The notes beneath the pieces are model-generated. The model made no database searches and was not told the origin of the DNA. It was given only the letters and a program-made list of their open reading frames with translations. Shown one piece after another: positions 14,071 to 62,367 of a stretch of DNA of 64,000 bases; the stretch's first letter is position 1, and the number at the start of each line of letters is the position of its first letter. The DNA comes from a virus (taxonomy: Duplodnaviria > Heunggongvirae > Uroviricota > Caudoviricetes), in IMG/VR virus record IMGVR_UViG_3300026484_000600; one strand, written 5' to 3'. Made by a program: the position numbers and the translations under genes.

Positions 14071-14151
14071 ATTAGTTCTCCTTAGTTATTCGTTCTAACT
14101 TATGTTAGATTCAATAACAGTTTTAATAATACACTAAGTGTGTTTTTATTT

Positions 14152-14171: not shown

Positions 14172-14204
14172 TATACTTAAATATAAATAAAGAAAAATAA
14201 GTGA

Positions 14205-14920: not shown

Positions 14921-15195
14921 AATTTCATCCGATAAATATACAAATCATGTTACCATAGTGATTTGACTTCTATTTTTTCTTTTTATACCATTTTATTATA
15001 TAGGAGATTATTATTAAACTCATAAATCGCCTCCTAAATCAAAGATATTTTTTATAGAAGATTCAATAAATGAATTTACGTAAATAATATCCGAGTAAAA
15101 ATAAAATTTAAATAAGATCTACTAATTGAATGTAACATAATTATCTCCTTCTGTCGATATGACTAATTATTTATTAAAATTATACAAAAATGTTA

Positions 15196-17886: not shown

Positions 17887-17895
17887 AAGAATCCT

Positions 17896-18489: not shown

Positions 18490-18498
18490 TACAAGCCT

Positions 18499-18795
18499 TT
18501 ATATAAATTTTTCTGGAAACATCTCAATAGCTTTATCAAATGCTATCTGTGCTTCTTCAATTGTGATATTATATTTAATAGCAACTTTATCTATACTTAA
18601 ATGATTTTTCTTATTTCTAAAAATTGATATATTTCTTTCTTCGGCGGTTTTATACAGTTTATGTTCCAACGGTACTATGATATTGGTATCTTGACCTTCT
18701 ATTGAAATTGATTTCAGAAAAGAATTTCCGCTATTTTCTTCAATACCCTCAAAGAGTTCATTCTTTATAGTAATACCATAAACTAAATCAGCCAT
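18499..18795 (-). CDS. Hypothetical protein
   Basis: 98-aa ORF between hen1 and pnkp. Confidence 0.4.
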   Translation of the reverse strand: MADLVYGITIKNELFEGIEENSGNSFLKSISIEGQDTNIIVPLEHKLYKTAEERNISIFRNKKNHLSIDKVAIKYNITIEEAQIAFDKAIEMFPEKFI

Positions 18796-19673
18796 TCTGG
18801 AAATCTCCTAATAATTCTTTCCCAAACATCTTCAGGAATCTCTGATTGAAAATCATTTTTTAATGCGAATTTAATATTCTTTTCAGTCATCCATAAAAGA
18901 TCTACATCTTCTTTTTCAAAGCGCTCATATAAGAATGGACTAGCCCAAACTATAATTCGATCATCTTTTATTAAATATCCATTATTTGCAGCTTCTATAT
19001 ATTCTAAATATTCAAAAATTATATCTTCACGATCTATTCCTTTTATTTCAAGAATATTAAAAGAGTTTTTAAAATGTCCTAAAAGTTTTTCTTTTCCATC
19101 ATATTGTATCTTATCTTCAACATAGAAAATACTTTGATGGAACCCTTTACCATAGGTATCCATAACATCATAATTCATTTCGAGGGGTATATTATTGTAA
19201 AAAATATCAGTAATTACAATGTCTCCAGTACCGATATAATCTGTATCTTTTGCCTCTATTACTAATAAATCTTTATTAAAATCGTCGGTATTTTTTAAAA
19301 TTTCTGTTTCAAAAAAAATACCTTTTTCTATTGATACTGATGAAATATACCAACCATCAGATAAAAAATTATCATCATTAATATTAAGGGTTAAATCACT
19401 AATATTAATAGTATCATATTTTGAATATTCGTATTCATTAACATTAATAGAAATACTACCATCAATAGCACAACTGGAAATATGTTCTATATCATCAAAA
19501 TCATAATATTGTCTTTCCCATCCACTACTACTGAATAATGTATCAAAATGGCCAATAATTTCATTGTAATCAAAACGTCTAAGAAGTTCTTTTATATTGT
19601 TGATATGGAGCTTATTGAGCTTACCACAGCAATATTCTCCACCATATCCACCAAATGTTAATACCATTTTCAT
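18783..19673 (-). CDS. Hypothetical protein
   Basis: 296-aa ORF between hen1 and pnkp. No motif recognised. Confidence 0.45.
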   Translation of the reverse strand: MKMVLTFGGYGGEYCCGKLNKLHINNIKELLRRFDYNEIIGHFDTLFSSSGWERQYYDFDDIEHISSCAIDGSISINVNEYEYSKYDTINISDLTLNINDDNFLSDGWYISSVSIEKGIFFETEILKNTDDFNKDLLVIEAKDTDYIGTGDIVITDIFYNNIPLEMNYDVMDTYGKGFHQSIFYVEDKIQYDGKEKLLGHFKNSFNILEIKGIDREDIIFEYLEYIEAANNGYLIKDDRIIVWASPFLYERFEKEDVDLLWMTEKNIKFALKNDFQSEIPEDVWERIIRRFPEWLI

Positions 19674-20923
19674 ACCCTTTTAATTATACAACCAATACTT
19701 GTAGATATACCATTGATATTATCGCCTATTTCTATAAATTCAAAGGATAGGTTATCATTATTAAAATTAGACATAAAACTTTTAAATTCATCAAATGTAG
19801 GTTCCCAATCATGATCATCATGTCGCATTTCTCCACCTAATTCGTAAAATACGTTAAAGTCTTTATTTGGTACTGTAATGATAAACGTATCAAAATTAAT
19901 AGATGTTAGCACTAATTCTATTAATCTTTTTGATTCAACTTTTGGCATATGTTCGATAACTTCGGTTAGTATTACATCTACTAACTCATTATCGTAATCT
20001 TTTATAAAATCTTCTAGACTATTAAAGAGATTAATATTTGTAATTTCTTTTTTTGAAGCTTTTATCTTGACTGACTCTAATAGATTAGGATTAATATCAA
20101 TGGCGTTATAAAAATATTTTTCTATTTTTTTAGAAAAATCTATTGCATAAAATCCTTCTCCACACCCAATATCAATAATCGATTTATTAAATGATAATAA
20201 ACGCTCTATTCTATCTTTTCGTTGCATAGCCGTATTACCATAAGCCATATTGATATTATATCTTTTTGATTCTTCAAGTAATTGTTTATATTTTTTAAAT
20301 TGATTTTTACTTTTAATAAGATTTCTACTTACTAAATAACGTATAAAGAATGGTGCATCTAATCGATTCATAGCATTTAGGTATTTTTCAATATTTGAAT
20401 TATCTAAATGTACATAGTCGTTACTTGATAATGCAATAAAAATCATCATAAGATTAATATAATTTAATAACATGAACCAACTATTTTCAGTTGTCACCTT
20501 AATAGTATAGTTTTTCCCTACTTGTTCAGTAATTTCAATTTCAAAATCAGGGAAATATTTCTTAAAATCCATTAACTGTTTTATTCTTTTAATTTCGAGT
20601 AAATTAATATAAAAATATTTCGGGTTTTTTATATCTAATTCTGATTCTTCTCTAACAGTACTTGAAAAAAATTCACTTATTGCATTGATAATAAACATGG
20701 GCGAGTTGTATTTAGAAATATTTAGATAATCAAATTCTTGTGATCCAAAGGATACATCATTATCAGCATCCTTAAAATAGATATTAAAGTCGGTACCATT
20801 ATGAGAGTACCAGGTAAATGCAGTACCTTTACGTATACTTCTTATTTGCATAGATGAATTTGGATTTTTTTTAATAATGTATCCAAAATTTGGATCATCA
20901 GAATGTAGCTGTAAAATAGCCAT
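19670..20923 (-). CDS. hen1: Hen1-like RNA 3'-terminal 2'-O-methyltransferase (C-terminal Rossmann MTase)
   Basis: SAM-binding motif I IIDIGCGEGFYAIDF in the C-terminal half of a 417-aa protein. Bacterial Hen1 has the same architecture and partners with Pnkp, which lies 1.8 kb downstream in the same orientation. Confidence 0.55.
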   Translation of the reverse strand: MAILQLHSDDPNFGYIIKKNPNSSMQIRSIRKGTAFTWYSHNGTDFNIYFKDADNDVSFGSQEFDYLNISKYNSPMFIINAISEFFSSTVREESELDIKNPKYFYINLLEIKRIKQLMDFKKYFPDFEIEITEQVGKNYTIKVTTENSWFMLLNYINLMMIFIALSSNDYVHLDNSNIEKYLNAMNRLDAPFFIRYLVSRNLIKSKNQFKKYKQLLEESKRYNINMAYGNTAMQRKDRIERLLSFNKSIIDIGCGEGFYAIDFSKKIEKYFYNAIDINPNLLESVKIKASKKEITNINLFNSLEDFIKDYDNELVDVILTEVIEHMPKVESKRLIELVLTSINFDTFIITVPNKDFNVFYELGGEMRHDDHDWEPTFDEFKSFMSNFNNDNLSFEFIEIGDNINGISTSIGCIIKRV

Positions 20924-23005: not shown

Positions 23006-23455
23006 TTAGAATTTTTTTAATGTTCTTTCCATATCTCGCTTGATATCACGCTCTTTAATAGTTTGTTTTTTATTATATGTTTTTTTGCCCTTAGCTAATG
23101 CCAACTGTACTTTTATTTTTTTTGTACCTTCTCGTTGATAAATTGATAAAATAATTAAAGTCAGTCCCTGTTCTTTTAATTTGCTTTTGAGTTTTAAAAT
23201 CTCTTTCTTATGCATTAATAATTTTCTATCTTGCACTTCATCAAATATTGCATAGGATGGTATGTATGTTGGATTTGAAATATGAGCTTGAGTTAAAAAT
23301 AACTCATTATTTTTCATTTTGACGTAGCTTTCTTTAAGAGAAATCGTACTATCTCTTACAGCTTTTACTTCACCACCCGACAGTACAATCCCTGCTTCAA
23401 ATGTTTCTATGATTTCATAATTAAATCTAGCTTTTTTATTTTGAGCATAAGTCAT
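23006..23455 (-). CDS. smpB: SsrA-binding protein SmpB
   Basis: NKKARFNYEIIETFEAGIVLSGGEVKAVR matches E. coli SmpB [29 protein letters not shown]. The C-terminal LALAKGKKTYNKKQTIKERD matches VAKGKKQHDKRSDIKERE. 149 aa. Confidence 0.85.
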   Translation of the reverse strand: MTYAQNKKARFNYEIIETFEAGIVLSGGEVKAVRDSTISLKESYVKMKNNELFLTQAHISNPTYIPSYAIFDEVQDRKLLMHKKEILKLKSKLKEQGLTLIILSIYQREGTKKIKVQLALAKGKKTYNKKQTIKERDIKRDMERTLKKF

Positions 23456-23655: not shown

Positions 23656-23945
23656 TAATCTAATTCCACCGAGAAATAATTTAATAGATATACCATATAT
23701 TCAGCTTCAAATTCATATTTATCATCGGAATGAATTAATTGATATAGCTTCTTAAATGGCAATTCATTTTTATTTGTCTTTATTTTATGTAAATCCTTAA
23801 ATTTATCTCTGTGCGTTAATTGAAATAAACTAAAAATTTTATTTGTCAAGAATGCTTGTTCTTCATATGATAAAATTCTATTTTTATAGATTATTTGTGG
23901 AAAATCATCTATGGATTTATCATAGCCATTTGTCCATAACTTCAT
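23655..23945 (-). CDS. Hypothetical protein
   Basis: 96-aa ORF. Confidence 0.4.
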   Translation of the reverse strand: MKLWTNGYDKSIDDFPQIIYKNRILSYEEQAFLTNKIFSLFQLTHRDKFKDLHKIKTNKNELPFKKLYQLIHSDDKYEFEAEYMVYLLNYFSVELD

Positions 23946-24490
23946 AATTCACCTTTTATAATGTCTTTATATTTTTTAATTAACTTACTATCTAATTTCA
24001 CTCGTATTTTAGTTTCGCCACCTAGACACTTACCTGCACCAGTCGATAAATTTAATAAGCCATTTCTATTTTCAAAAGCAGCTTCAACAGCACCCAATTG
24101 ATAATCTCTTAATATTACAGGATTACCATCAAATTCATAGTCTGAGAATATATCGTCTTTTATACCATCTTCAAAAAAATCATTTAATGGTAAAAAATGT
24201 TCCATTACTTCACTACTCATAGTAACTTTCTTTTTTTGTACTTCTGTTAAATATTCTACAACTTCTGAGAATAAACCCATTGGGAATGATCCATCGGCCT
24301 GTACTAATTTAACTTGAACTCCTTTGATTCCCATAAGCCTAAACCTAGGCTGAAATTTATAACCCGGTGGTAAGAATGCAAATTTTTGTTGGACATGATA
24401 TAACATACTAGACGAAATTTTATTTAATACAAATGTTGCTGAATCTCTTTTTGTGATATGGATTGGAATATTTTTCTTTTTTTTAGCCAT
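23942..24490 (-). CDS. uvsW: UvsW-like SF2 helicase N-terminal fragment (N-extein ending in Walker A GAGK) fused to a 28-aa split-intein N-fragment
   Basis: GYKFQPRFR matches T4 UvsW GYRFNPRFR. LRDYQ...GLLNLSTGAGK matches UvsW HWYQ...ILNLPTSAGKS. The ORF then continues CLGGETKIRVKL... (intein block A, Cys1) for 28 aa and stops. Confidence 0.75.
   Translation of the reverse strand: MAKKKKNIPIHITKRDSATFVLNKISSSMLYHVQQKFAFLPPGYKFQPRFRLMGIKGVQVKLVQADGSFPMGLFSEVVEYLTEVQKKKVTMSSEVMEHFLPLNDFFEDGIKDDIFSDYEFDGNPVILRDYQLGAVEAAFENRNGLLNLSTGAGKCLGGETKIRVKLDSKLIKKYKDIIKGEL
23945..24028 (-). mobile_element. Short IntN (block A only) of an atypically split intein inserted in the helicase P-loop
   Basis: CLGGETKIRVKLDSKLIKKYKDIIKGEL immediately after GAGK. 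The partner IntC is at 41995-42414. Confidence 0.65.
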
Positions 24491-32489: not shown

Positions 32490-34667
32490 TTAAATATTAT
32501 TTTTTATGAATTTTTTAAGATTATCTAATGTTAAGGGTTTTGAAAAATAATAACCTTGATAAAAATCACAACCTAATCTATCAAGAATTTCTTTTTGTTT
32601 TGAATTTTCAATTCCTTCCGCTATAATAATAGTGTTGAAAATTTTACTCATTTTAATAATTACTTCAGCCATACTTTTAGAGATATTATCATGTACAATA
32701 TCATCAACAAATGCTTTATCAATCTTTATTTCATCAATAGTTAAATTTTTAACAGATGATAATGATGAGTATCCTGTTCCGAAATCATCAATAGATATTT
32801 TCACTCCTAATTGATGTAACCCATCTATTATTTGTTCCATATGAGTTAAATCCAAAATAAATAGATTTTCGGTTACTTCTAATGTAATATTATGTGGGTT
32901 AATATTAAATTGATTCATTTTATTTTTAATTTTTTGGACAAAACCATCTTCCATAAATTGTTTGATTGAAATATTGATTGAAATATTAAAATCCTTTGGA
33001 ACTATTTTTTTAAATTTATTAATATCATTAAATACATAATCTAAAATATAATCACCCAAAATAATTATATTTTCATTCTTTTCAGCAATTTTAATAAATG
33101 TTTCAGGACTTATTTGACCTAATTTTGAATTGTTCCATCGAACTAATGCTTCTACACCCACTATTTTATTTTTAGTATTTAGTTGTGGTTGATACACCAT
33201 GAATATCTCTTTTAAAATAATACCTTCCAATAATTTATTTTCTATTAAATGTTCTTCTTTAAAGGTTTCTTCTATATTTTTATCATAGAATACAATAGTA
33301 TTTTGTTTTTCTTTTGCTTTATATAAAGCTAAATCAGCTTTATATTTTACACTATGAAGATCTTCAAATCCCTCACATTGTGCAATACCAATACTCATAG
33401 TAGTTTTATGTTCATATTTGAATTTATCATTAGTTATATTTAATAAACTTTTAGCAAAACTTATCACCTTTTCTTTGTTCATTTCTCTAGTAATAATTAT
33501 AAATTCATCTCCACTAAAACGTATCAGCAAATCATCAGAAGAAATATTTTTTTTAAGTTCTGTTGCTATGGAAATCAAGAAATTATCACCGTAATTGTGT
33601 CCAAAGTTATCATTTATAAATTTAAAATTATCTAAATCTAAAAACAACATACTATAATGTTTATAATTGACTATTTTTTTATTTAGGTAATATCTATTTC
33701 CAACGTGTGTTAATGGATCATGAATAGAAATATATTCTAATTCATTTTTTCGTTCATTATTAATTTTATTAATAATGAACATCATTATAATAAAACTTAT
33801 ATTAAAAGCAAACCAAATAGATACTGCATTTATTAACCAATCATTTTTTAAAGAATCTATAATTTTTGAAGGGAACCCTATAACGAGCCATAGATCATAT
33901 CTTTCAATAAATTTTACACCGACCTTATATTTTGTATTATTTAATGATGTAGTGGTTAATGATATTTGATTTGTTTTTTTAAATAAATTATGTACATCGA
34001 TTTTTATAATAGAATCTATTTTAAAATCATTAATATTTGAATATTGAATTCTAGAGGAATTATTTTTAATTAATAAAATTATAGAATCATTGTGTATTTT
34101 ATTTGTAAATAAATTAGAAAATGACTTATTTATATTAATATCTACTGCAAGTACACCATACACTTTTGAATTTTTCCTAATACTTTTTCTTATTGGGATT
34201 ATTAGTTGGTTTGTTGGTCTAAATAAATATGAACGTCCTAAAATTGATGACTTGCATTTTAACGTTTTAAGAAATGACTCTTTAGTTTTTGGATTGGAGA
34301 TAAAATTAGGTATCTTTTTTACATCAACATTCGACGAATTTATTAATATGTCTCCATCGGGCGATATAAAACCATACCCTACTGCATCAGGTTCCAATTC
34401 TAACGCCATATTCAAATATTTTTGCTTATTGGGATAGGTTAAAATATTATTTCCTAACATTGTAAGTATGTTATTATATTTGTTAAATACATCTTCGGAT
34501 GCAATAGACAAAATACTTAGTTCGTGAAGAATCTTATTATCAATTTCATCCATAATATCTTTATTATTTGATTTATAACTAAAATAAAATATAATAGAAG
34601 TAGATATAATAACAAAAGCGATAACTAATAAACTTCCTAATTTTTCTAAAAAATATTTAATATTCAT
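32490..34667 (-). CDS. Membrane sensor protein with GGDEF (degenerate SGDEF) and EAL domains (c-di-GMP phosphodiesterase, possibly also cyclase)
   Basis: N-terminal TM, a periplasmic-like region and a second TM. The GGDEF region carries LFLDLDNFKFINDNFGH and RFSGDEFIII. The EAL domain carries YQPQ, EALVRW, DDFGTGYSSL and KIDKAFV signatures. Confidence 0.75.
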   Translation of the reverse strand: MNIKYFLEKLGSLLVIAFVIISTSIIFYFSYKSNNKDIMDEIDNKILHELSILSIASEDVFNKYNNILTMLGNNILTYPNKQKYLNMALELEPDAVGYGFISPDGDILINSSNVDVKKIPNFISNPKTKESFLKTLKCKSSILGRSYLFRPTNQLIIPIRKSIRKNSKVYGVLAVDININKSFSNLFTNKIHNDSIILLIKNNSSRIQYSNINDFKIDSIIKIDVHNLFKKTNQISLTTTSLNNTKYKVGVKFIERYDLWLVIGFPSKIIDSLKNDWLINAVSIWFAFNISFIIMMFIINKINNERKNELEYISIHDPLTHVGNRYYLNKKIVNYKHYSMLFLDLDNFKFINDNFGHNYGDNFLISIATELKKNISSDDLLIRFSGDEFIIITREMNKEKVISFAKSLLNITNDKFKYEHKTTMSIGIAQCEGFEDLHSVKYKADLALYKAKEKQNTIVFYDKNIEETFKEEHLIENKLLEGIILKEIFMVYQPQLNTKNKIVGVEALVRWNNSKLGQISPETFIKIAEKNENIIILGDYILDYVFNDINKFKKIVPKDFNISINISIKQFMEDGFVQKIKNKMNQFNINPHNITLEVTENLFILDLTHMEQIIDGLHQLGVKISIDDFGTGYSSLSSVKNLTIDEIKIDKAFVDDIVHDNISKSMAEVIIKMSKIFNTIIIAEGIENSKQKEILDRLGCDFYQGYYFSKPLTLDNLKKFIKNNI

Positions 34668-34704: not shown

Positions 34705-35223
34705 TTAAATAAATAATTGGGGGTTTACAAATGAAAAATTTTTAGTATTTAGTTGCATAATTTTATCGTCATATTCAAATAAAAATTCTTGTGGGTTTTT
34801 AATATAATACCAAATCCCCAACCAATAAATATCATTTAAAATTTGTGTTTGGAATTGTTCAATATAGGTACTACCATATTTATTAGATTGTCGTAATTTA
34901 CTAAAATATATAGCAGCTTTAAATTCTATATAATTTTTTGGGCGAATCTGATTTATCATTTCAACTGCAGACATTACTTCTTCATCAAAGTCTTCTGAAG
35001 TTAAGTGATTATTTTTTATAAGTGTCCATAAAATAAATCCAAGATCATTTTTTAGTGATTTAATATTTGATTCTTTAATGTCAAACCCAAATTTCATGGG
35101 CATTTTGAATTCTTGACCTATTAAATATTCAAATCCTTGTATATTTTTTAATTGATTTAACTCATTTTTGGTTTTTTTCAGTTCATGTTCTAATAGCTGA
35201 TATTCAAATTTACTCACACTCAT
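34705..35223 (-). CDS. Hypothetical protein
   Basis: 172-aa ORF overlapping the SAH gene by 14 nt. Confidence 0.4.
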   Translation of the reverse strand: MSVSKFEYQLLEHELKKTKNELNQLKNIQGFEYLIGQEFKMPMKFGFDIKESNIKSLKNDLGFILWTLIKNNHLTSEDFDEEVMSAVEMINQIRPKNYIEFKAAIYFSKLRQSNKYGSTYIEQFQTQILNDIYWLGIWYYIKNPQEFLFEYDDKIMQLNTKNFSFVNPQLFI

Positions 35224-36129: not shown

Positions 36130-37866
36130 ATGAAAATAAAAGATATATTGGATATATTTTATCCTAATGGACTTGATAGACCCTATAACAAGAATGTATT
36201 GAGAAAACAACCAGAATTAAAACAAATATTAATTAAGAAAACTGATTTTTTAAAAAAGGAAGCGACTATTTCAGAACGTCTTTATGTTTTAAGACATAAT
36301 ATTTGTGTATCGCCAATATGTCTTGAGTGTGGATCACCAGTAAAATTCAAAAGTCCTAAAGAAGGTTATGCAAAATTCTGTTCTAAGAAATGTACTTCAA
36401 AATCATCAATAACTAAAATAAAAAGAAATAATACGTTTAACGAAAAATATGGTGGTATTGGTTTTGGGTCAAAAGAAATTTTAGATAAAGTATATGAAAC
36501 CAATTTAGATAGATTTGGGACATCTATTCCACAACAAACAAATATAATAAAAGATAAAATTAAAAATTCCTGGAAGGATTTAGATAAAGAAATTATTTTA
36601 AAAAAGAGAAGAGAAACTAACTTAGAAAAATACGGGACAGAATATCATCAACAGAATAGTGACCAAAAAGAAAAATTACTTAAATCAATGATTAAAAATA
36701 ATGGTGGTATTGGTCTTTCTTCAGATAAAATCAAATCTAAAGTTAAAGCGACAATGCAAAAAAAATATGGTGTAGACAATCCCATGCAGTCGGATAAAAT
36801 CAAATCTAAAGTTAAAGCGACAATGCAAAAAAAATATGGTGTGGATAATTACAAAGAATTAGATAATGATGCATGGAATAATTTTAAAAAATATTTTGAT
36901 CCAGAAACATTTCAATTAGACTTATCTTTGCAAGAAATGGAAGAAAAATATCAAGTGCGATATTACACCATATCTAATTTTTTGCAGAAGTATGGTTTTG
37001 AATTTTCAAAAATATCATCATATGAACAATCATTACGTAATATATTACCTGATGATTTTGAATTTAATAACCGAACAATTTTAGATGGTAGAGAACTAGA
37101 TTTTTATTCAAAAAGTCGAAATTTAGCTATTGAATTTAACGGACTTTTATATCATTCTGAAAAATATGGAAAAGACAAGAATTATCATAAATCAAAGACG
37201 GATGGATGTATATCTAAGGATATATCATTGATACACATATTTGAAAATGAATGGTTGTTTAAACGTAATATCGTAGAATCTATAATTAATACCAAGTTGA
37301 ATAATTTTTCTCATAGAATTTATGCTAGAAAATGTCAAATTAAAGAACTCGATACCAAGATTAAAAATGATTTTTTAGAAGAAAATCATATTCAAGGAAA
37401 AGATAGCTCCAAAGTAAAATTAGGATTATTTTATGAGGGTGATTTAGTACAAGTTATGACATTTGGTCATTCTCGATTTAATAAAAAATATCAATATGAA
37501 ATGCATAGATCTTGTTCAAGAATTGGTTATCAAATAATCGGCGGATTAAATAAATTGTGGTCATACTTCATTAAAAATTATAAACCTAAATCTGTTGTTA
37601 CGTATGCTGATAGAAGATATTTTGATGGGAGGAGTTATTTAAAATTAGGGTTTAATTTTTCTCATACCTCACCATCTAATTTTTGGATATTTGGTCCTGG
37701 TATAAAAGGTGTTGATTCAAGATTAAATTGGCAAAAACACAAGCAGAAAGATAAATTAAAAAAGTTTGACCCAACTTTAACAGCATGGGAAAATATGATT
37801 GATAATGGTTATAATAGAATATGGGATAGTGGGAATAATGTATATATTTGGAAAGCGGAAGAGTAA
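36130..37866 (+). CDS. Putative free-standing homing-endonuclease-like protein (Zn-ribbon, tandem KYG repeats, C-terminal Vsr/DUF559-like PD-(D/E)XK domain)
   Basis: N-terminal CLECGSPVKF...FCSKKC. Repeated KYGG/KYGV modules, including an exact 23-aa duplication. A C-terminal RELDFYSKSRNLAIEFNGLLYHSE motif (the DF...AIEFNG..H endonuclease signature). Convergent with and abutting the intein-bearing gp41 gene. Confidence 0.45.
   Translation: MKIKDILDIFYPNGLDRPYNKNVLRKQPELKQILIKKTDFLKKEATISERLYVLRHNICVSPICLECGSPVKFKSPKEGYAKFCSKKCTSKSSITKIKRNNTFNEKYGGIGFGSKEILDKVYETNLDRFGTSIPQQTNIIKDKIKNSWKDLDKEIILKKRRETNLEKYGTEYHQQNSDQKEKLLKSMIKNNGGIGLSSDKIKSKVKATMQKKYGVDNPMQSDKIKSKVKATMQKKYGVDNYKELDNDAWNNFKKYFDPETFQLDLSLQEMEEKYQVRYYTISNFLQKYGFEFSKISSYEQSLRNILPDDFEFNNRTILDGRELDFYSKSRNLAIEFNGLLYHSEKYGKDKNYHKSKTDGCISKDISLIHIFENEWLFKRNIVESIINTKLNNFSHRIYARKCQIKELDTKIKNDFLEENHIQGKDSSKVKLGLFYEGDLVQVMTFGHSRFNKKYQYEMHRSCSRIGYQIIGGLNKLWSYFIKNYKPKSVVTYADRRYFDGRSYLKLGFNFSHTSPSNFWIFGPGIKGVDSRLNWQKHKQKDKLKKFDPTLTAWENMIDNGYNRIWDSGNNVYIWKAEE
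36721..36858. repeat. 69-nt direct tandem repeat (2 copies) inside the homing-endonuclease-like gene
   Basis: gataaaatcaaatctaaagttaaagcgacaatgcaaaaaaaatatggtgt occurs twice with a 69-nt period. It encodes SDKIKSKVKATMQKKYGVDN twice. Confidence 0.75.
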
Positions 37867-37877
37867 TCTACTCTTCC
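37857..37877. terminator. Perfect 9-bp hairpin spanning both stop codons of convergent genes
   Basis: ggaagagta-atc-tactcttcc. The + gene stop TAA and the - gene stop (CTA on +) both lie inside the stem. Confidence 0.4.
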
Positions 37878-39289
37878 TTCGATGTAATTAATTTATCGCC
37901 AACTTTAAGTGAAGCCATAATACAGTCTTCCACTATTTTTCCATCATCTAAGACTTTTGGAAAAATATGTCTTCCAGACACTTTGATAGTTTTTCCACTT
38001 TTTAAAGTGATTTCATATACTTCTTGTTCTTCTGGTTCAGTAACGGCTGTTACAGTTCTAAATTCATTATTAGTTCCAAGAACTTTATCACCTACATTGA
38101 TTTCTTCAATATTTATTTTACCGCTTGGGGTTGTTACTTTTTCTCCAAATGCTAGACATCGGTTGTATTGGTCTGCCGTCCATACAATAGTGTCAAAGAG
38201 TGTTGCTACAGCTCTTAATTCTTCAGATACATATTTATCTTTTTCAAACATTCCCTGCCAATTTTTCCCATTTGGTGTCATTAGACCCGCATAATCTAGA
38301 ATAATAATAGGGACAGTATTATATTTTTGTAGATAATTTCTTACAAATAATTCCAATTTCATTGCACTTAGTGTATTGGGTTGATAAAAATGAACGGTAA
38401 ATCTACCATAGCCTTTATTATCACATTTCTTTAGATGATTATAAATTTCCATTTCAGATTTTTCAATTTGGTGTGTTGGTATTTTAGTCGAATGTGTTAT
38501 ATATCTTTTCATGATTTTTTCTTCTTTTAGTTCCAACGAAATATATATAACATCTCTTTTCATTTGGATATAATTCCATGCTAAATTTATTAATCCTATT
38601 GATTTACCACCGCCTGATTTAGCTAGTAAATAATTTAAACTAGGAATTGTTACACCTCCATCTAATTTATCATCTACGTTCCACCATCCAGTAGGAATTG
38701 TAGCTTCAGTTGATGTCAGCATTTTAAATAAATCTCGAAAATTATCTTTATCAGTATCTATGGTTACACCTAGTTTTGTATCGATATCAACATTTACTGC
38801 TTCTTTAATTTTCTTTTCAATAGTTCCATAATCTTCTTCTTCTAAAAGCTCGATACTATCTTCGATTGCACCTTTCATACTCATATTTTTTATAAATGCA
38901 TTTAGATAATCTTCAAGATATTCTGTTGGCCAAGGTTTATTTATATCTAACCAGTCATCATGCACATTATCTAAGTTTAACTCTAATAATATAGCATCTT
39001 CTGGAGGAATACTTTTATATAAATCATAATAATCGATCATGAAATCAACTATTAATTTATTGATTTTTGACTCAAAAAAATCTTTATCTAAAAATGTTAT
39101 ACCCTTAACAAATAACTCTGGATTATTAATAAGTTGAGCAAGTAAAACCCGTTCTTTATCTTCAATATCTAATAGTTTACCTTCCGAACGTTCAACATTC
39201 TTTTTTTTCTTTTTCTTTTTCGATGATGATTCTGCTTCTAATTCGGCTAAAGCGTCTTCATATTCTGTATCATCTATTTGCTCATCCAT
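37868..39289 (-). CDS. gp41/DnaB-family replicative helicase whose ORF terminates in a 96-aa split-intein N-fragment
   Basis: DnaB motifs IPTGWWNVDDKLDGG, Walker A LAKSGGGKSIGL and the arginine-finger region DQYNR. Then CLAFGEKVTTPSGKINIEEINVGDKV (intein block A, Cys1) and a SGRHIFP block-B-like segment, followed by a stop. No C-extein follows. Confidence 0.75.
   Translation of the reverse strand: MDEQIDDTEYEDALAELEAESSSKKKKKKKNVERSEGKLLDIEDKERVLLAQLINNPELFVKGITFLDKDFFESKINKLIVDFMIDYYDLYKSIPPEDAILLELNLDNVHDDWLDINKPWPTEYLEDYLNAFIKNMSMKGAIEDSIELLEEEDYGTIEKKIKEAVNVDIDTKLGVTIDTDKDNFRDLFKMLTSTEATIPTGWWNVDDKLDGGVTIPSLNYLLAKSGGGKSIGLINLAWNYIQMKRDVIYISLELKEEKIMKRYITHSTKIPTHQIEKSEMEIYNHLKKCDNKGYGRFTVHFYQPNTLSAMKLELFVRNYLQKYNTVPIIILDYAGLMTPNGKNWQGMFEKDKYVSEELRAVATLFDTIVWTADQYNRCLAFGEKVTTPSGKINIEEINVGDKVLGTNNEFRTVTAVTEPEEQEVYEITLKSGKTIKVSGRHIFPKVLDDGKIVEDCIMASLKVGDKLITSKEE
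37871..38158 (-). mobile_element. Split-intein IntN (blocks A and B) at the end of the gp41/DnaB gene
   Basis: 96 aa starting with Cys directly after the helicase QYNR motif. The gene ends without blocks F/G or a C-extein. Confidence 0.6.
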
Positions 39290-41994: not shown

Positions 41995-42414
41995 ATGGAA
42001 GAAATAGAATTAACTTTTGAACAATTATTTAAAATAATATCATTAGAAGAAAATATTGCGTTTCGTAGAGATGAAGAATATTTTCAACAAACACCAATAC
42101 AGATTCAAAATGAATATGGTGAGTGGATTGATATAAAAGGTCTTATTGTAAAAGAAGATAATTTAATAAAATTAGAAATTAATGCGACAGAGTATATAAT
42201 AACTACTGACAATCATATTTTGATGCTTGATGACCACACCTTAAAAAAGGTCAATAAATTGTCTATAGGTGATAGATTATATAATATTGATGAAAATCAT
42301 ATGGCTGTAGTTACAAATATAGAGAATTTGTATGAACAGGGCTTATTATATGATGTTGAAGTTGATTCTGAAAATCATTTATATCAAATAGCAAATGGTA
42401 CCATTCATCACAAT
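41995..42414 (+). mobile_element. Long IntC of an atypically split intein
   Basis: 140 aa ending ...NGTIHHN|T. It complements the 28-aa IntN at 23945-24028. The reconstituted junction reads GAGK-T (Walker A). Confidence 0.65.
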
Positions 42415-43404
42415 ACGTTATTAACGTCGGCTATTGTTAAATATGCCAATAAACTAAATATGAAAACGATTGTTATTGTTCCATCATCATCATTATTAAA
42501 GCAAACTTATGATTATATAAAACAATTTGATATTCCAGTTGGTATGTTTGGTAGTGGTAAAAAAGATGATGAAGTTAATATTGTGGCTACCTGGCAAACG
42601 TTACAAAATAATAAACATTTTATTCGTGATTTTGAATGTGTTATATGGGATGAGTGTCATAATGCCAAAGCGTATGTAGCTCAACAAATTATGAATGAAG
42701 CAAAAAATTCATATCTTCGAATAGGTTTGACTGGTACCGTGCCGAAAGATCCATTAGATAAAGCTAATTTAACAGCTGGTTTTGGACCAGTAGTTTATGA
42801 TATAAAAGCTCATGAATTACAAAAGAGAAACATATTATCTTCAATAGATATTAATATTTTTGAACTAGTTTATCCTAAAGAATATTTGGGTTCATTTATT
42901 GATTGGCATGAAGAAACTGTTTTTTTACAAAGTAATGAAATGTTTCAAAAATTAATGAAAGCAATTGTTGACTCATTAGAGGGTAATACATTGATATTAA
43001 TGAAGAATATAGATCCAGCTGAGGATTTATCAGAATTTTTAGAGTGTGAATATATTAGCTCGAAATTATCCGTTAATAAAAGACAGGAAAAATTTAATGA
43101 ATTTGTTTATGGTGGTAATTTAATAACTGTTGGTACATATTCATTACTTAGTACTGGAATTGATATTGTTCATATTAATAATTTAATTCTTGCACCAACA
43201 CCTGGCAAAAGTTTTACTAAAGTTATACAATCGATTGGTAGGGGTCTTAGAAGAAAGGAGGGACAAAAAGAGCATGTTACTGTAATCGATATGACATCCA
43301 ATTTGAAATATGATAAAAAACATATAAAAGCTAGAAAAGATTTTTATAAAGAGGCTCAATATCCATTTGAAGTTGAAAAGATAGAATTAAAAAACTTTAA
43401 ATAA
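41995..43404 (+). CDS. uvsW: Split-intein C-fragment (about 140 aa, blocks B/F/G ending HHN) fused to the C-extein of the UvsW-like SF2 helicase
   Basis: The N-terminus carries TDNH (block B), LLYDVEVDSENHLYQIANG (block F) and IHHN (block G). After +1 Thr the sequence is TLLTSAIVKYANK...IVIVPSS (motif Ia), VIWDECHNA (motif II), LTGT (III), LLSTGIDIV (V) and QSIGRGLRR (VI). It aligns with T4 UvsW. Confidence 0.75.
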   Translation: MEEIELTFEQLFKIISLEENIAFRRDEEYFQQTPIQIQNEYGEWIDIKGLIVKEDNLIKLEINATEYIITTDNHILMLDDHTLKKVNKLSIGDRLYNIDENHMAVVTNIENLYEQGLLYDVEVDSENHLYQIANGTIHHNTLLTSAIVKYANKLNMKTIVIVPSSSLLKQTYDYIKQFDIPVGMFGSGKKDDEVNIVATWQTLQNNKHFIRDFECVIWDECHNAKAYVAQQIMNEAKNSYLRIGLTGTVPKDPLDKANLTAGFGPVVYDIKAHELQKRNILSSIDINIFELVYPKEYLGSFIDWHEETVFLQSNEMFQKLMKAIVDSLEGNTLILMKNIDPAEDLSEFLECEYISSKLSVNKRQEKFNEFVYGGNLITVGTYSLLSTGIDIVHINNLILAPTPGKSFTKVIQSIGRGLRRKEGQKEHVTVIDMTSNLKYDKKHIKARKDFYKEAQYPFEVEKIELKNFK

Positions 43405-58041: not shown

Positions 58042-59352
58042 TTAAAATAAAATATTTGAGAAATCATTATCCTTCTCAAATATTTCTAATTTTATATTTT
58101 GTGTTTTATTTACATAATCTTGCCATTCATAGAAATCATCTATATCATCTATTTTTTCTAATTGACTGAATAATTCTAAATCCTTACCTTTAAATATATC
58201 TGATAATTCTATATTGTCCTCTAAAAAATCTTCAAGAACCATAGCATACTTATACACATTATAAAAAATAAAATACTGTTCCTGTGTTAAATATTTTAAT
58301 GATTCATTAATATCATCAGTTTCATCATGACGAGCTTTTGCACTTTTGATACCTCTACTATTCCATTGAGAGTTTTCTAATAAATCTTCCCAATCTTTAA
58401 AATTACAATTGGGTGCATCTTTCCAGAATTCATATAATTCTTTATAGTACTCTTCAACTTCTTTAGTTCTTTCTTTCCCCAATTCATATTTTCTATTATT
58501 GATTAAATCGTTAGTCGATTTTATAACATTGCCCATTACATATGTCATAGATATTGAGGAACTATCGAATGAAAGTATCTTCATATCTTTTATTAATCCA
58601 CTTTTAAGTATCATTATCATAGGTATTATTCTTTTATAACCACTCATACCAAGCATATGATAATGATTTAAAAATTGTTTTTTGAGTAATGGATTTGTAT
58701 ATATATCTATTGCTCTTTGTGCCGTTCCCCATATTGATGAACTTTGAAATCCTGCAGCCAACATATCAAATTCATTCCATATATTTTTACAACTTGTCAT
58801 TAAACCTTGAGTAAATAGATCTGTATCTTTGTATCCCCAGCCTTGAATAATTGGTACAATTTTTGTATTAGATTCAGCCTCTTTAAAAAAATTATATTGT
58901 TCAAGTAAATTCTCTCCAGAAATAATACCACACTTATATACTGTCTCAGGCTTATAATATTTTTTCTTATCTATGAAAATACCAGGAATTTCATCAAAAC
59001 TCATAGCATGGCTTGCATATTTTATTTGTGTATCATAAATTTTTTTTCTTTGTGATTCATCAACTGTATGTCCTAGTGTCATCATTTGTAATCCACCACT
59101 ATCAGCATAGAGGTTACTACCAATAATAGATTTCATACCTGTAAATCTATTAGATGCATTTCTAGCACAATCTTCCTCTGTATATGCATTAAATAAAGCA
59201 CTTACAGATACATTATCTTTAAGTTTTGATCTCATATATGCTATTGATGTTTGTACTGATTGTGCTGTTGCTTTATACATCTCACCTTGTTGTCTACACA
59301 TTTTCATATAATGAGGAAAAGCTGAAAAAACGAATTCTAAATTTGTCGTCAT
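58042..59352 (-). CDS. tRNA-guanine transglycosylase (TGT/DpdA)-superfamily protein, paralogue A
   Basis: YADSGGLQMM matches the TGT substrate motif TDSGGFQVF. AMSFDEIP matches IFDECT. HMLGMSGYKRII matches YLMGVGKPEDLV. No CxCxxC...H zinc motif visible. Confidence 0.5.
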   Translation of the reverse strand: MTTNLEFVFSAFPHYMKMCRQQGEMYKATAQSVQTSIAYMRSKLKDNVSVSALFNAYTEEDCARNASNRFTGMKSIIGSNLYADSGGLQMMTLGHTVDESQRKKIYDTQIKYASHAMSFDEIPGIFIDKKKYYKPETVYKCGIISGENLLEQYNFFKEAESNTKIVPIIQGWGYKDTDLFTQGLMTSCKNIWNEFDMLAAGFQSSSIWGTAQRAIDIYTNPLLKKQFLNHYHMLGMSGYKRIIPMIMILKSGLIKDMKILSFDSSSISMTYVMGNVIKSTNDLINNRKYELGKERTKEVEEYYKELYEFWKDAPNCNFKDWEDLLENSQWNSRGIKSAKARHDETDDINESLKYLTQEQYFIFYNVYKYAMVLEDFLEDNIELSDIFKGKDLELFSQLEKIDDIDDFYEWQDYVNKTQNIKLEIFEKDNDFSNILF

Positions 59353-59364
59353 ATTATATCCTAA

Positions 59365-60696
59365 TTAAAATAAAACATTAGCCACTTTATTAATATCAAA
59401 AGGTGATTCGTTAATAGTGGTGCTATTCTGAACTTTATAATTTGATGCAGCATAATTTTCCCAATCATATAATTCATCAAGAGTATATACGTTTTGTAAC
59501 GGTTGAAAAATTTTTAGAGTTTTTTTACTGTGTAGAATTTGCTCCATAGTAAGTTCATCAGTCATAAACTTATTTAAAACTTCAAAATATTTGTACATAT
59601 TTAAAAAAATATAATTTTGAATAATATTAACATTTTTTTTATAAGCTTCTACATCTCGTTCAGCTAGTTGTCTATTCGGTGTATTAATTTTATCTTTATC
59701 CCAAGATGAATATTTAAAATAATCATCAAATGTATCAATATTGTATGTAGGTGCATCCTTCCAAAAGTCATCTAATTCTTTAAAAAAGTCTTCCGTCATT
59801 TTATTGCGTTTTAAACCTAATTTATCATCTTGCATACCATTAATACACCAATCAACACTTTTTTGAAGATTTCCAAAAGCGTACGTTTTTGCATGGTAAC
59901 TACTATCAAATGAAATTTTTTCTGTATGCTTAAATAAACCATTTTTAACCAATTGAAGAATCGGAATCATTCTATCAAAACCCGTTACTCCAAGTAAGTG
60001 AATATGTTTTTTAAACTTGTTATCAATATTTTTCATAGATAAAAATGTACTAGTAGATTGTAATAAACCAAAACCATTTCCATGAGCATTACCCATAGCA
60101 AAAGCTTCAATATATTTTAAATCCTCTTTGGATATTTGGGATAACATGGCATTCGTAAACTCAGTTATTTGTTTTCTTCCTCTACCTTGAACAATAGGTA
60201 ATGCTTTTGTATGAGATTCACTATTCTTTATAACTTTCAACAGAGTATTTAAATTCTGACCTGTTTTTTCACCATATGGTTTTACCCATTCATTTACAAA
60301 AACTCTTGTATCATCGATATTATAAGATGGTATTTCATCAAAGATAAATGCAAAGTCTGCATATTTTGCTTGATTTTGCATTATATTTTTTTTAATCTCT
60401 TCAGTAATATTTAAATTTTGTTTCATCATCTGAAGACCACCACTATCAGCATAGACATGTTTGTGCCCACAACTTGGATCACTTAATCCACAATCTAAAA
60501 TACGTTCATACTGTTCAGGTTCATAAAATGCATTATAAAGTCCAGAAAATTCAAAAATATTATTTTCTAATTTACTCATCATATATTTTAAATTTGCAGT
60601 ATAATTTTCAGAAGCCCATTTTAATAATTCTGGGTCTTTTGAATTTAGGAAGTTAAAATTCATCCAAGCACTAGCAACATATTCTAATGTAATCAC
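59365..60696 (-). CDS. TGT/DpdA-superfamily protein, paralogue B (GTG start)
   Basis: Same motifs as its neighbour (YADSGGLQMM, FIFDEIP, HLLGVTGFDRMI), with about 30% identity by eye across the length. The ORF begins with GTG, which overlaps the stop of the upstream small ORF. Confidence 0.5.
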   Translation of the reverse strand: MITLEYVASAWMNFNFLNSKDPELLKWASENYTANLKYMMSKLENNIFEFSGLYNAFYEPEQYERILDCGLSDPSCGHKHVYADSGGLQMMKQNLNITEEIKKNIMQNQAKYADFAFIFDEIPSYNIDDTRVFVNEWVKPYGEKTGQNLNTLLKVIKNSESHTKALPIVQGRGRKQITEFTNAMLSQISKEDLKYIEAFAMGNAHGNGFGLLQSTSTFLSMKNIDNKFKKHIHLLGVTGFDRMIPILQLVKNGLFKHTEKISFDSSYHAKTYAFGNLQKSVDWCINGMQDDKLGLKRNKMTEDFFKELDDFWKDAPTYNIDTFDDYFKYSSWDKDKINTPNRQLAERDVEAYKKNVNIIQNYIFLNMYKYFEVLNKFMTDELTMEQILHSKKTLKIFQPLQNVYTLDELYDWENYAASNYKVQNSTTINESPFDINKVANVLF

Positions 60697-60857
60697 TCTT
60701 GCATCCCTTTTATTAGTAGTGCGATTTCAGAATTTAAACTAGAACTCAAATTAAAGAAAAAAGCAGCTTCATTATATTTTTCTTCTTGCAGTAAGCTTAC
60801 AGCTTTATTTGTAAAGTGCTGGATTTTTTCTAATAATTCTCGAATTTTATAATCCAT
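60693..60857 (-). CDS. Small hypothetical protein (54 aa)
   Basis: Unlisted ORF MDYKIRELLEKIQ.... It lies downstream of an extended -10-like motif, and its stop overlaps the GTG start of TGT paralogue B. Confidence 0.35.
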   Translation of the reverse strand: MDYKIRELLEKIQHFTNKAVSLLQEEKYNEAAFFFNLSSSLNSEIALLIKGMQE

Positions 60858-60905: not shown

Positions 60906-61853
60906 TTAACTTTCTAACCATTTTGAATCATGAGTGATTCTAGTATCATAAATGCTAAATTCTATTACTTCTTTTTCTAATTCAAAATTATCTGTAATTA
61001 GGCATTTTTTAATCCATTTCAAACTATCTTCAAAATCTTCAAACACCTGATCATAACTACGATAAGTCATCATAATTGTAAAGCTACCATCATCAAAAAC
61101 TTTAAATTTATTTTTAGATAAATGACAATTTGTATTTTTTGCAATAGTTGAAAGTAAAGGTAACTTTTCATCAGTACAAGCTACATTTAGGTGACATTCA
61201 AAGTAACACCCTTCAGGCATTTTAGTATCACCATCGGCTTTAAAAGGTGCTTTAGCGTGCCAATAACTAGCTTCAATCTTTTCTCTAATTACATTATAAC
61301 CATGCTGAGTTAATTCATTTGAAATCCTTTTCATCTCTTCAAATGCTTCACCATTGTTTCCTACAATTTTAGATGAAGTCATCACATCATCCATAACAGG
61401 TTTACCAGATTTATCTTGTAGATCGAGAATAATAGGTTTAACTCCAATATCTTTGCAATCTTGTTTGTATTTTTCTACATCAATACCATTTTCTGCATTA
61501 ACTGTAATATGGATTTCATAAGGCATTAAATCACTTTTTGCCAATGCTCTATCTTCTTTAACTTGTAACCCATTCCATACTTGAGCTTTCTTTAAAACCA
61601 TATCATTAAATTCTTCATCAGTAAATCCAGCACTATATAGAATACTTTGATTTACAAGAAAAACATCGGCGCATTCTTCAAGAATCTTTTGTTTATTAAT
61701 AACTCTATGATTAGTAGCATATGCACCTTCAAAAGGTAATACAACTTTAGCAAGTTCCCCACCTTCTTCAAATAGTTTTGTGACTTTTTGAATTAGTGTT
61801 TTTTTATCATTGATTGATAATTTTTTAATATAATTTAATAATTTTTCAGTCAT
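60906..61853 (-). CDS. Protein with an N-terminal MazG-like nucleotide pyrophosphohydrolase domain
   Basis: EEGGELAKVV ... EECADVFLV, the two EExxE/D helices of the MazG/HisE family. 315 aa. Confidence 0.45.
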   Translation of the reverse strand: MTEKLLNYIKKLSINDKKTLIQKVTKLFEEGGELAKVVLPFEGAYATNHRVINKQKILEECADVFLVNQSILYSAGFTDEEFNDMVLKKAQVWNGLQVKEDRALAKSDLMPYEIHITVNAENGIDVEKYKQDCKDIGVKPIILDLQDKSGKPVMDDVMTSSKIVGNNGEAFEEMKRISNELTQHGYNVIREKIEASYWHAKAPFKADGDTKMPEGCYFECHLNVACTDEKLPLLSTIAKNTNCHLSKNKFKVFDDGSFTIMMTYRSYDQVFEDFEDSLKWIKKCLITDNFELEKEVIEFSIYDTRITHDSKWLES

Positions 61854-62367
61854 TGTTATCCTCCCAATCTAAATTTAATTCTTCTTCATATTCTCTTGTT
61901 AAATAAATTTCTTTTGGTAATAATGATTTGAACTTCTCATTAATTGCTTGTTTTCTATCTTTTTCATTATTCATATAATCTTCTAAATCATAACTCAATG
62001 TAATGTGTGGTATGTATTCAGGAAAATCATAAGTTGCACCGTGTTCTTTCATTAATTCTTTGTGTCTTTTAACTAAATCAGGTGAATTCAATTTAAGAAC
62101 AAGAATATCTTTACCATCTTGTCCATTAAAAATATGAAATTCCGTTGGATAAGACCAAATATCTAAACTATCAGCAGGTTTATAATTTGGTAAAACTTTT
62201 CTGCTATATAGGAGAGTGATATGAATATCGTTTCGTGGAATAGGATTTGGGATTCCCATTTCTTTTACTATGGAGATGATTCTATCTTCATCATCTTGAC
62301 TCAATAGAACACCGGCATAAGTACCCTTAGCTTCTTTTTCTTCATTAATTAATTTTTTTAATTTCAT
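61846..62367 (-). CDS. 2H phosphoesterase superfamily protein (LigT-like 2',3'-cyclic phosphodiesterase / 2'-5' RNA ligase)
   Basis: Two HxT/Sx motifs (DIHITLLYS and IPHITLSYD) about 85 aa apart. 173 aa. Confidence 0.6.
   Translation of the reverse strand: MKLKKLINEEKEAKGTYAGVLLSQDDEDRIISIVKEMGIPNPIPRNDIHITLLYSRKVLPNYKPADSLDIWSYPTEFHIFNGQDGKDILVLKLNSPDLVKRHKELMKEHGATYDFPEYIPHITLSYDLEDYMNNEKDRKQAINEKFKSLLPKEIYLTREYEEELNLDWEDNND

Follow-up and report, generated by a model that had tools for sequence, protein, structure and literature searches.

What is the function of two adjacent genes for zinc-less TGT-like proteins in a large phage, and on which nucleic acid and with which base would they act? 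Modification of DNA with 7-deazaguanines is widespread among phages as a defence against restriction, and DpdA enzymes are its hallmark. The genes studied here lie within a 64,000-nt stretch of Caudoviricetes DNA (IMG/VR record IMGVR_UViG_3300026484_000600), hereafter the window, and had been proposed from sequence either to exchange a different kind of base or to act on tRNA.

Two adjacent paralogues under purifying selection

Both genes are on the minus strand. Paralogue A (58042-59352) encodes 436 aa from an ATG start and paralogue B (59365-60696) encodes 443 aa from a GTG start, leaving a gap of 12 nt between the two ORFs. The original prediction of a tandem paralogous pair of ~440-aa proteins was borne out: its coordinates were exact, and A and B shared 33% identity across 421 residues (BLASTP, E = 2e-68), far above chance. 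Both genes are under strong purifying selection (dN/dS ~0.05 for A and B; A, 0.051). A small ORF of 54 aa (60693-60857, minus strand) ends in a TGA that shares bases with the GTG start of B (GTGA); it was kept upstream of B in relatives and is probably co-translated with the pair. A megablast search with the A/B locus against 50,697 phage records returned no match.

Fold and family of the paralogues

AF2 models of B and A (pLDDT 91.6 and 89.3, respectively) displayed the same order of secondary-structure elements and the (beta/alpha)8 TIM-barrel of the TGT type. The best Foldseek match was DpdA (7ui4), and QTRT2 was also among the best structural matches. When compared with E. coli TGT, a broad family profile aligned with 94% probability (hhalign), with the DSGG, FDE, QG and LLGVG motifs in register. 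The broad profile was needed here, the profile of the A clade only giving a weak match (probability 17%). The TGT fold suspected earlier was confirmed by both the profile alignment and the match to 7ui4. Scans of A and B against Pfam and NCBIfam (E up to 0.1), including the PF01702/TGT models, gave no match, and PDB sequences searched by phmmer and profile gave none either.

Homology to phage proteins was detected. A matched PHROG 10773 (E = 5e-37), and tblastn matched VH7D, KVP40-like phages and pf16 at E values of 1e-22 to 5e-29 (VH7D/KVP40-like, 27-28% identity, E about 6e-24; pf16, E = 5e-29). The best match in BFVD was a 464-aa protein of Vibrio phage nt-1 (E = 2e-22, TM 0.75), presumably nt-1 DpdA2. 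A and B belong to the known phage DpdA2 family as divergent members, and the analogy first drawn with phage DpdA was correct in this respect.

Catalytic residues and the absent zinc site

The TGT signatures described at the outset (DSGGxQ, FDEIP and LxGxxG) were present in both proteins, the last of these corresponding to HxH(L/M)LG(V/M)(T/S)G. Three motifs occupied the same residues in A and B, namely DSGGLQ (84-89), FDEIP (119-123) and I(I/V)QG (168-171). DSGGLQ (minus strand; B, 60430-60447; A, 59086-59103) carries Asp84, the putative general acid/base, which in B aligned with Asp89 of E. coli TGT. FDEIP (minus strand; B, 60328-60342; A, 58984-58998) carries Asp120, the putative base-recognition residue, which in B aligned with Asp143 of E. 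coli TGT. The sequence SFDSS was also found in both proteins (FDSS, minus strand; B, 59899-59910; A, 58558-58569), and its Asp (Asp264 in B, Asp263 in A) is, judging by the position of the motif, the predicted covalent nucleophile. This position was invariant in 33/33 aligned sequences and [FYIL]DS[STVA] was found in 141/141 family representatives. All three active-site Asp residues (D84, D120 and D263 in A or D264 in B) were invariant family-wide.

The base-contacting position is occupied by Gln170, within IVQG in B (60184-60195, minus strand) and IIQG in A (58840-58851, minus strand). Gln was invariant here among 33 aligned members, and two paralogues of the array described below, 1 and 3, had His instead. 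The position appears equivalent to His196 of 9g and His181 of bDpdA, so that A and B would carry Gln in place of the conserved His of DpdA1/bDpdA.

In TGT and bDpdA, a CxCxxC...H zinc site is described as conserved (PMC10164549). As predicted, A and B had no CxCxxC; nor was it found in any of the six array paralogues, and beyond the nucleophile Asp each protein of the pair had a single Cys (C316 in A, C284 in B). However, the zinc-less state is not special to the pair but is DpdA2-wide, as 0/250 family members examined possessed CxCxxC.

The pair forms the end of an array of about six paralogues

The genes had been described as a duplicated pair. They are not an isolated duplication: B and A are the last two members (5 and 6, respectively) of an array of about six paralogues. 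In the 224-kb phage genome IMGVR_UViG_3300026521_000471, which was 94-97% identical, six paralogues were found within ~31 kb (about 97.9-129.3 kb). Paralogues 1-2 and QueD/QueE are known from this relative rather than from the record of the window itself. On the contig of the window, the part of paralogue 3 that was read comprises the C-terminal 227 residues (97% identical), and paralogue 4 (P0047) was covered in full, making it the third paralogue there. All six retained the catalytic residues. Conserved radical-SAM, FAD-oxidoreductase, SDR and glycosyltransferase genes were interleaved with the array. The arrays of related phages comprised three to five paralogues, or more, together with a QueE-like gene, and one such array also contained QueC. 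Every published case examined had a single DpdA per virus, whereas three to six divergent, apparently active DpdA2 proteins occurred in the low-GC large phages here; a multi-paralogue DpdA2 array in one large phage is undescribed in the literature searched.

This arrangement bears on whether A and B form an obligate heterodimer like QTRT1/QTRT2, where one subunit catalyses and the other holds the nucleic acid. Duplication would then reflect subunit specialisation and not new specificities. TGTs are dimers with QTRT2 close in structure, A and B are adjacent behind a translationally coupled small ORF, and paralogues 2 and 3 likewise sit side by side. However, no catalytic residue is missing from A, B or any other of the six paralogues, in contrast to QTRT2; B-type and A/C-type genes also occurred singly on other phage contigs; and Salmonella DpdA is a monomer (PMC10164549). 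We consider both an obligate A/B heterodimer and the subunit specialisation it implies improbable.

Genes for 7-deazaguanine biosynthesis

The lack of preQ0 biosynthesis genes remarked on in the original prediction held for the 64-kb window but, judging by a relative, not for the genome. In the 94-97% identical genome, a QueE-like radical-SAM gene was located inside the array (NCBIfam top five all QueE, E = 4e-20; PHROG 2076, E = 5e-56) and a QueD-like gene ~7 kb upstream of it (PTPS domain, E = 4e-19; C-x4-HGH motif). These genes are 26-36 kb upstream of the pair and 23-33 kb past the end of the window. The search for folE, queD, queE and queC that had been suggested for the rest of the genome was therefore fruitful in part: phmmer searches with proteins of E. 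coli, PG216 and pf16 and with the L123 QueC detected neither FolE nor QueC in the 132 of 224 kb covered (contig positions 63.8-196.2 kb), and the identity and source of the base are uncertain for this reason. On either side of the PG216 and pf16 homologues lie QueF, FolE, QueC and Gat genes. Given the QueD-like and QueE-like genes of the 94-97% identical genome, and the QueC of a related phage, another kind of base need not be postulated.

Several other candidates were rejected. The radical-SAM gene at 12527-13435 was RlmN/Cfr-like and that at L014:3910-4659 MoaA/SPASM-like, and neither was accepted as QueE. A PP-loop gene (11560-12534) considered as QueC was NadE, and a 131-aa ORF upstream of the QueE-like gene, considered as QueD, was a small membrane protein.

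Neighbouring genes and the likely substrate

The MazG-like neighbour (60906-61853, minus strand) was recognised as such by PHROG 1247 (E = 4e-41); it encodes a pyrophosphatase with an extra C-terminal domain and had no match in Pfam or NCBIfam. The adjacent 2H phosphoesterase gene (61846-62367, minus strand) does have the 2H fold, but is specifically the anti-CBASS phosphodiesterase Acb1 (Pfam PF23474, E = 1e-36; 126 bits against a gathering cut-off of 27, full length) and not a partner enzyme. Acb1 was also found beside the array in relatives and is probably an independent counter-defence gene, unrelated to the pair. Counter-defence-like NADAR and NAPRTase genes were also located nearby.

With Acb1 two genes away and NADAR and NAPRTase in the vicinity, the paralogues might themselves act in counter-defence on other targets, either excising or exchanging bases in host DNA or hindering CBASS type IV Cap9/Cap10 or Dpd immunity. 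Such activity would be without precedent, Cap10 scored below TGT and DpdA, and the QueD, QueE and QueC genes linked to the paralogues speak for base synthesis and insertion, making this the reading to which we attach the least credence, close to none.

The conserved C-terminal tails of both proteins may point to DNA. B ends in the acidic/hydrophobic KVANVLF (59368-59388, minus strand), a candidate sliding-clamp-binding motif, and A in DFSNILF (58045-58065, minus strand), a candidate clamp-binding epitope. Residues 437-443 of B had pLDDT <50 and are predicted to be disordered. The tail motif occurred in 81/109 and 95/141 family members compared to 5/87 ORFs of the window. The reference for a sliding-clamp-binding epitope is the T4 gp43 tail, ...SLDFLFG (PMC6212786), and the resemblance of ...NVLF and ...NILF to it is what suggests clamp binding; if genuine, it would favour DNA over tRNA as the substrate. 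T4 queries of the covered region for the phage's own gp43, gp45 and gp55, whose tails would serve for comparison, recovered only a gp41-like helicase and neither clamp nor polymerase.

The window is also rich in RNA-repair genes (Ro60/TROVE, Rnl1-like ligase, Thg1-like, Pnkp, Hen1, SmpB and tmRNA), and an aspartyl-tRNA synthetase (AspRS) gene lies beside the array. Both leave room for an RNA substrate, counting against DNA modification, and part of the early proposal that tRNA might be the target survives to that extent. On this reading, tRNAs of host or phage, or another RNA, would receive a queuosine precursor from the paralogues, or damaged tRNAs would be restored by them, as one arm of a large RNA-repair repertoire; tRNA-Asp is among the tRNAs that carry queuosine. 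However, the closest characterised relatives, nt-1 and VH7D DpdA2, modify DNA (PMC10516641), and the full-length architecture fits nt-1 DpdA2 and not TGT. A and B have no Pfam TGT match, zinc subdomain, PUA or other tRNA-binding domain, and their tail resembles a DNA-clamp ligand. Action on RNA is, in our judgement, very unlikely.

Proposed function

As an overall explanation, we consider it likely, by analogy with characterised enzymes, that A and B are catalytically competent zinc-less DpdA2 enzymes that put 7-deazaguanine into phage DNA. As in TGT and DpdA, Asp84 would protonate the leaving guanine, whilst Asp263 (A) or Asp264 (B) would attack C1' of deoxyguanosine in double-stranded phage DNA, so that enzyme and DNA become covalently linked in an intermediate, and guanine would then give way to a free 7-deazaguanine base. 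This is probably 7-carboxy-7-deazaguanine or one of its derivatives, which the phage QueD-like and QueE-like enzymes would make from dihydroneopterin triphosphate of the host; with QueC supplied by the host or encoded in the unread part of the genome, preQ0 would be inserted instead. DNA modified in this way may resist host restriction.

With Gln or His at the base-contacting position, the approximately six paralogues may each serve a particular DNA sequence context or a particular base, so that together they would replace a larger share of G. Through the C-terminal tail they may be anchored to the phage sliding clamp where DNA has just been replicated, and a clamp ligand at this position would account for a coupling of base exchange to replication. 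If target-motif or substrate specificity is split among them, the paralogues could constitute a natural set of DNA base-exchange enzymes with different sequence specificities, and the DNA could have a high modification level or a new modification. A further-reaching version, that a low-efficiency DpdA2 enzyme has given rise to a clamp-tethered battery of about six paralogues, specialised for context or base, which together swap nearly all G, in any context, for a CDG-derived base, possibly decorated by products of the interleaved genes, is one we entertain but doubt. If true, DNA would be fully modified by a new route, and perhaps with a new 7-deazaguanine derivative.

Comparison with known systems

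Bacterial Tgt and QTRT1/QTRT2 differ from the paralogues in that A and B lack a PF01702 match and the zinc subdomain, have a different C-terminal domain and belong to phage-encoded arrays. Bacterial DpdA (Salmonella Montevideo, 7ui4) and phage DpdA1 share with A and B the TIM-barrel TGT fold, three invariant Asp residues and, we infer, double-displacement exchange of guanine in DNA. However, bDpdA has a CXCX2CX22H zinc site and a base-contacting His and needs the DpdB ATPase (PMC10164549), none of which applies to A and B.

A similar gene pattern occurs in DpdA3 phages, as CP220 and phiST have FolE, QueD and QueE but no QueC (PMC10516641). A third phage, immuto_2-6A, also encodes QueC and QueF, and G is completely replaced in CP220, phiST and immuto_2-6A (PMC10516641). 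DpdA3 membership, considered for the low-GC host and the QueD/QueE without QueC pattern, was rejected for lack of homology: no Campylobacter, Cellulophaga or Flavobacterium phage was among the 71 tblastn matches, and a phiST protein of unconfirmed DpdA3 identity matched only at Foldseek E = 0.03.

The closest system is that of nt-1 and VH7D DpdA2, which insert preQ0, preQ1 or CDG into DNA in E. coli (PMC10516641, PMC6884629). Assayed DpdA2 enzymes modified only 0.01-0.1% of G in phage DNA (PMC10516641), a level that makes the protective value of the modification uncertain. A and B resemble the nt-1 and VH7D enzymes in full-length homology (VH7D, E = 6e-24; nt-1, TM 0.75), membership of PHROG 10773, catalytic motifs, Gln in place of His and the missing zinc site, as well as in length (about 420-460 aa), helical C-terminal domain and occurrence in large myoviruses. 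Their clade is only 23-28% identical to these assayed enzymes and forms a separate superclade. The phage studied here also differs in that, in place of a complete FolE-QueD-QueE-QueC(-QueF/ArcS) cluster, only QueD-like and QueE-like genes were found, and in that it carries about six DpdA2 copies per genome instead of one, with two array members having His at the Gln position.

A tandem pair of zinc-less DpdA2-family transglycosylases

Two minus-strand ORFs in the AT-rich window (GC about 27%), A (58042–59352, 436 aa) and B (59365–60696, 443 aa, GTG start), are separated by 12 nt, and the GTG start of B and the TGA stop of a conserved 54-codon ORF (60693–60857) overlap. As originally predicted, they are adjacent paralogues resembling TGT/DpdA (33% identity across 421 residues, E 2e-68). 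Both carry DSGGLQ (84–89), FDEIP (119–123), I(I/V)QG (168–171), HxH(L/M)LG and SFDSS. The predicted absence of the zinc motif was also borne out by inspection of the sequences, with no CxCxxC in either protein and a single cysteine downstream of the SFDSS aspartate in each. Both are under strong purifying selection, with dN/dS of 0.051 (A) and 0.052 (B) against the relative IMGVR_UViG_3300026521_000471.

Curated libraries were blind to A and B. Pfam and NCBIfam scans returned no matches, nor did a PDB sequence search, family profile included. AlphaFold2 models, built from alignments of metagenomic homologues, had a pLDDT of 91.6 and pTM of 0.90 for B and 89.3 and 0.88 for A, with secondary-structure elements in the same order, and the best Foldseek match was DpdA (7ui4). 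Alignment of the family profile to E. coli Tgt with hhalign (94% probability, E 1e-7) paired DSGG with Tgt Asp89, FDE with Asp143, IVQG with IIQG and HLLGV with YLMGVG. In bacterial DpdA, the corresponding aspartates serve as general acid/base, base-recognition residue and nucleophile, and mutating the general acid/base or nucleophile Asp abolishes exchange (PMC10164549). All three were invariant among the aligned homologues, and 141/141 family representatives had both DSGGxQ and [FYIL]DS[STVA], the motif of the nucleophile. A and B are best read as guanine transglycosylases that act on DNA by the double-displacement chemistry of TGT/DpdA.

Both proteins fell into phrog_10773, annotated 'unknown function'. 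Searching 50,697 phage genomes with tblastn matched 71 records (26–29% identity, E 1e-18 to 5e-29), namely Vibrio KVP40-like Schizotequatroviruses (VH7D among them), Pseudomonas phage pf16, and phages of Stenotrophomonas, Xanthomonas, Acidovorax and Synechococcus. In Vibrio phage PG216, QueF, FolE and QueC genes flank the homologue, and in pf16 it is followed by QueF-like, QueC and amidotransferase genes. The family is thus DpdA2, a subfamily whose definition rests on Vibrio phage nt-1 (PMC6884629), and the analogy with DpdA drawn in the original prediction holds. In E. coli, DpdA2 of nt-1 and VH7D inserted preQ0, preQ1 and, weakly, CDG into DNA (PMC10516641). The best viral structural match to the B model was a 464-aa nt-1 protein (E 2e-22, TM 0.75), presumably nt-1 DpdA2. 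A Cellulophaga phiST protein, presumably DpdA3, matched at E 0.03 only. An exhaustive profile search of 1.84 billion representatives recovered only 597 clusters; the family is thus a small one, set sharply apart from canonical TGT. None of 250 family members examined had CxCxxC, so loss of the zinc site, of which we found no mention in the accessible DpdA2 papers, is a trait of an already known family and not an oddity of this pair.

Six paralogues in one array

The pair is not an isolated duplication. Several family members in the homologue tables lay on contigs of identical length. ENA contig ERZ27262648:k141_204592 carries A and B at 100% identity together with a third paralogue, P0047, which lies ~13 kb upstream of B, is 465 aa long and shares 44% identity with A. 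The relative (224,467 bp, 94–97% identical), covered from 63.8 to 196.2 kb, encodes six at about 97.9–129.3 kb. The array opens with paralogue 1 (517 aa), followed by a QueE-like gene, paralogues 2 (449 aa) and 3 (529 aa), seven further genes, paralogue 4 (P0047 type) and ~13 kb of other genes, and closes with B and then A. At least two phages that are more distantly related also carry arrays: a Logan contig has three paralogues, two in tandem, and on ENA contig ERZ930063:k127_74205 four lie within 11 kb, with a further copy of B type.

Pairwise identity among the six was 26–47%. Adjacent pairs could possibly work as heterodimers, although DSGGLQ, FD(E/V)(I/M)P, HxHLLG and FDS(S/T/V) were kept in 6/6, and this full conservation of catalytic residues argues against that model. 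Paralogues 1 and 3 have His in place of the base-contacting Gln of IxQG. Given this difference, and that single DpdA enzymes have target motifs while tested DpdA2 enzymes were inefficient (PMC10516641), we infer that the six copies are specialised by sequence context or by base.

Biosynthetic and neighbouring genes

That no preQ0 genes are in view was correct for the 64-kb window, where FolE, QueD, QueE and QueC were all absent, but not for the genome as read in the relative. For the gene separating paralogues 1 and 2 there (254 aa), the top NCBIfam matches were the five QueE models (E 4e-20, full length, below equivalog cut-offs), and it matched PHROG 2076 'QueE-like' (E 5e-56). A 200-aa PTPS-family protein ~7 kb upstream of paralogue 1 (Pfam E 4e-19) has a C-x4-HGH motif of the QueD-like rather than the DpdL-like type. 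QueE-like orthologues adjoin the arrays of both distant phages, and that of ERZ930063 also has QueC (PF06508, PP-loop SGGLDS, CxxCxxC tail). A phmmer search with a handful of queries, which divergent versions could escape, detected neither FolE nor QueC in the 132 of 224 kb covered for the window's lineage.

The block between paralogues 3 and 4 (L019:10725-18675, about 103.6–111.5 kb of the relative) encodes an FAD oxidoreductase, an SDR reductase, a GT-B glycosyltransferase, a MoaA/SPASM-like radical-SAM protein, an 826-aa unknown protein, a 117-aa protein and a second GT-like protein, and could hypermodify the inserted base. A similar radical-SAM protein lies beside the array of a distant phage (L012:5910-8700). 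Directly upstream of the array is an aspartyl-tRNA synthetase (L019:1529-3379; tRNA-synt_2 E 2e-96, with GAD and anticodon-binding domains); tRNA-Asp is among the queuosine-modified tRNAs.

Of the neighbours originally named, the MazG-like gene (60906–61853) stood, based on PHROG 1247, and the 2H phosphoesterase (61846–62367) is more exactly Acb1, an anti-CBASS cyclic-oligonucleotide nuclease whose gene also belongs to the core set of KVP40-like phages (PMC12028318). A functional tie of either to the transglycosylases is not needed. Near Acb1 and the array lies a nucleoside 2-deoxyribosyltransferase-like protein (L003:2265-2765; L008:398-1087; PF15891, faint here and solid in a relative). An N-glycosidase-type enzyme near base-exchange genes might supply or scavenge free base.

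Other genes of the phage

A tmRNA (4335–4715, plus strand, ARAGORN; tag peptide ANTKLYIPQTARVAA) and SmpB (23006–23455, minus strand, Pfam E 2e-47) form a complete trans-translation pair in a phage. A dense RNA repair and quality-control block (2521–20923) comprises Ro60/TROVE with a vWA domain (2521–4020), an Rnl1-like RNA ligase (4870–6273), a HAD 'Swiss Army Knife' RNA-repair domain (7808–8329), Nudix (8468–8917), a Thg1-like tRNA-His guanylyltransferase (9182–10324), a truncated RlmN/Cfr-like radical-SAM methyltransferase (12527–13435; rejected as QueE), a Pnkp kinase-phosphatase-ligase (15196–17886) and Hen1 (19670–20923). NadE (11560–12534), the PP-loop gene rejected as QueC, an isochorismatase/nicotinamidase-like gene (13432–14070) and, just outside the window, NAPRTase-like and NADAR genes (L014:12690-14054) may be an NAD-reconstitution counter-defence set.

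The phage also encodes c-di-GMP turnover enzymes, namely a 725-aa membrane GGDEF-EAL protein (32490–34667, minus strand, EAL E 2e-64) and, upstream, a GGDEF-only protein (L003:1-489). Intein fragments (Intein_splicing matches) lie C-terminally in a DnaB-like helicase ORF and N-terminally in a ResIII/UvsW-like helicase ORF; the N-terminal part of UvsW is encoded at a distance of ~18 kb, and nearby is a gene resembling DUF7487 homing endonucleases (37868–39289, 41995–43404, 23942–24490, 36130–37866). These look like replication genes that are split or interrupted by inteins. Small ORFs at 948–1325, 10901–11239, 18499–18795 and 34705–35223 have similar C-termini (YPEKFV, NPELFI, FPEKFI, NPQLFI), which may be a shared short motif or mark a small paralogous family.

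A candidate clamp-binding tail and comparison with known systems

All members of the window's superclade end in [ST]x[DN][DSN]LF (KVANVLF in B, DFSNILF in A), and other clades in SLLDLFG, SLVDMFE, SLDTFF or SLDQFFDD. The pattern occurred in 81/109 and 95/141 family members versus 5/87 window ORFs, two of the five being A and B, and the tail was the sole low-confidence segment in both models. Its likeness to the acidic-hydrophobic epitopes by which T4 gp43 (EKASLDFLFG), gp55 (SLDFLYEAND) and T4 ligase (LDFLF) bind gp45 (PMC6212786; PMC2988020) makes it a candidate clamp-binding motif. The phage's own clamp and polymerase were not located in the covered region. If a clamp ligand, the tail would bring the enzymes to replicated DNA, which would speak against a tRNA substrate.

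Neither this tail nor DpdA2 paralogue expansion is described in the searchable literature. New here are the expansion of a divergent DpdA2 superclade, with three to six paralogues in each phage genome interleaved with QueE(/QueC) and uncharacterised radical-SAM, oxidoreductase and glycosyltransferase genes, and the family-wide candidate clamp-binding tail. In the proposed mechanism, the phage's QueD-like and QueE-like enzymes would make the base as far as CDG at least, the remaining steps would come from FolE and perhaps QueC of the host, and A and B would insert the 7-deazaguanine into DNA. A similar pattern of QueD and QueE without QueC is known from Campylobacter phage CP220 and Cellulophaga phage phiST, in which the unrelated DpdA3 brings about complete replacement of G (PMC10516641).
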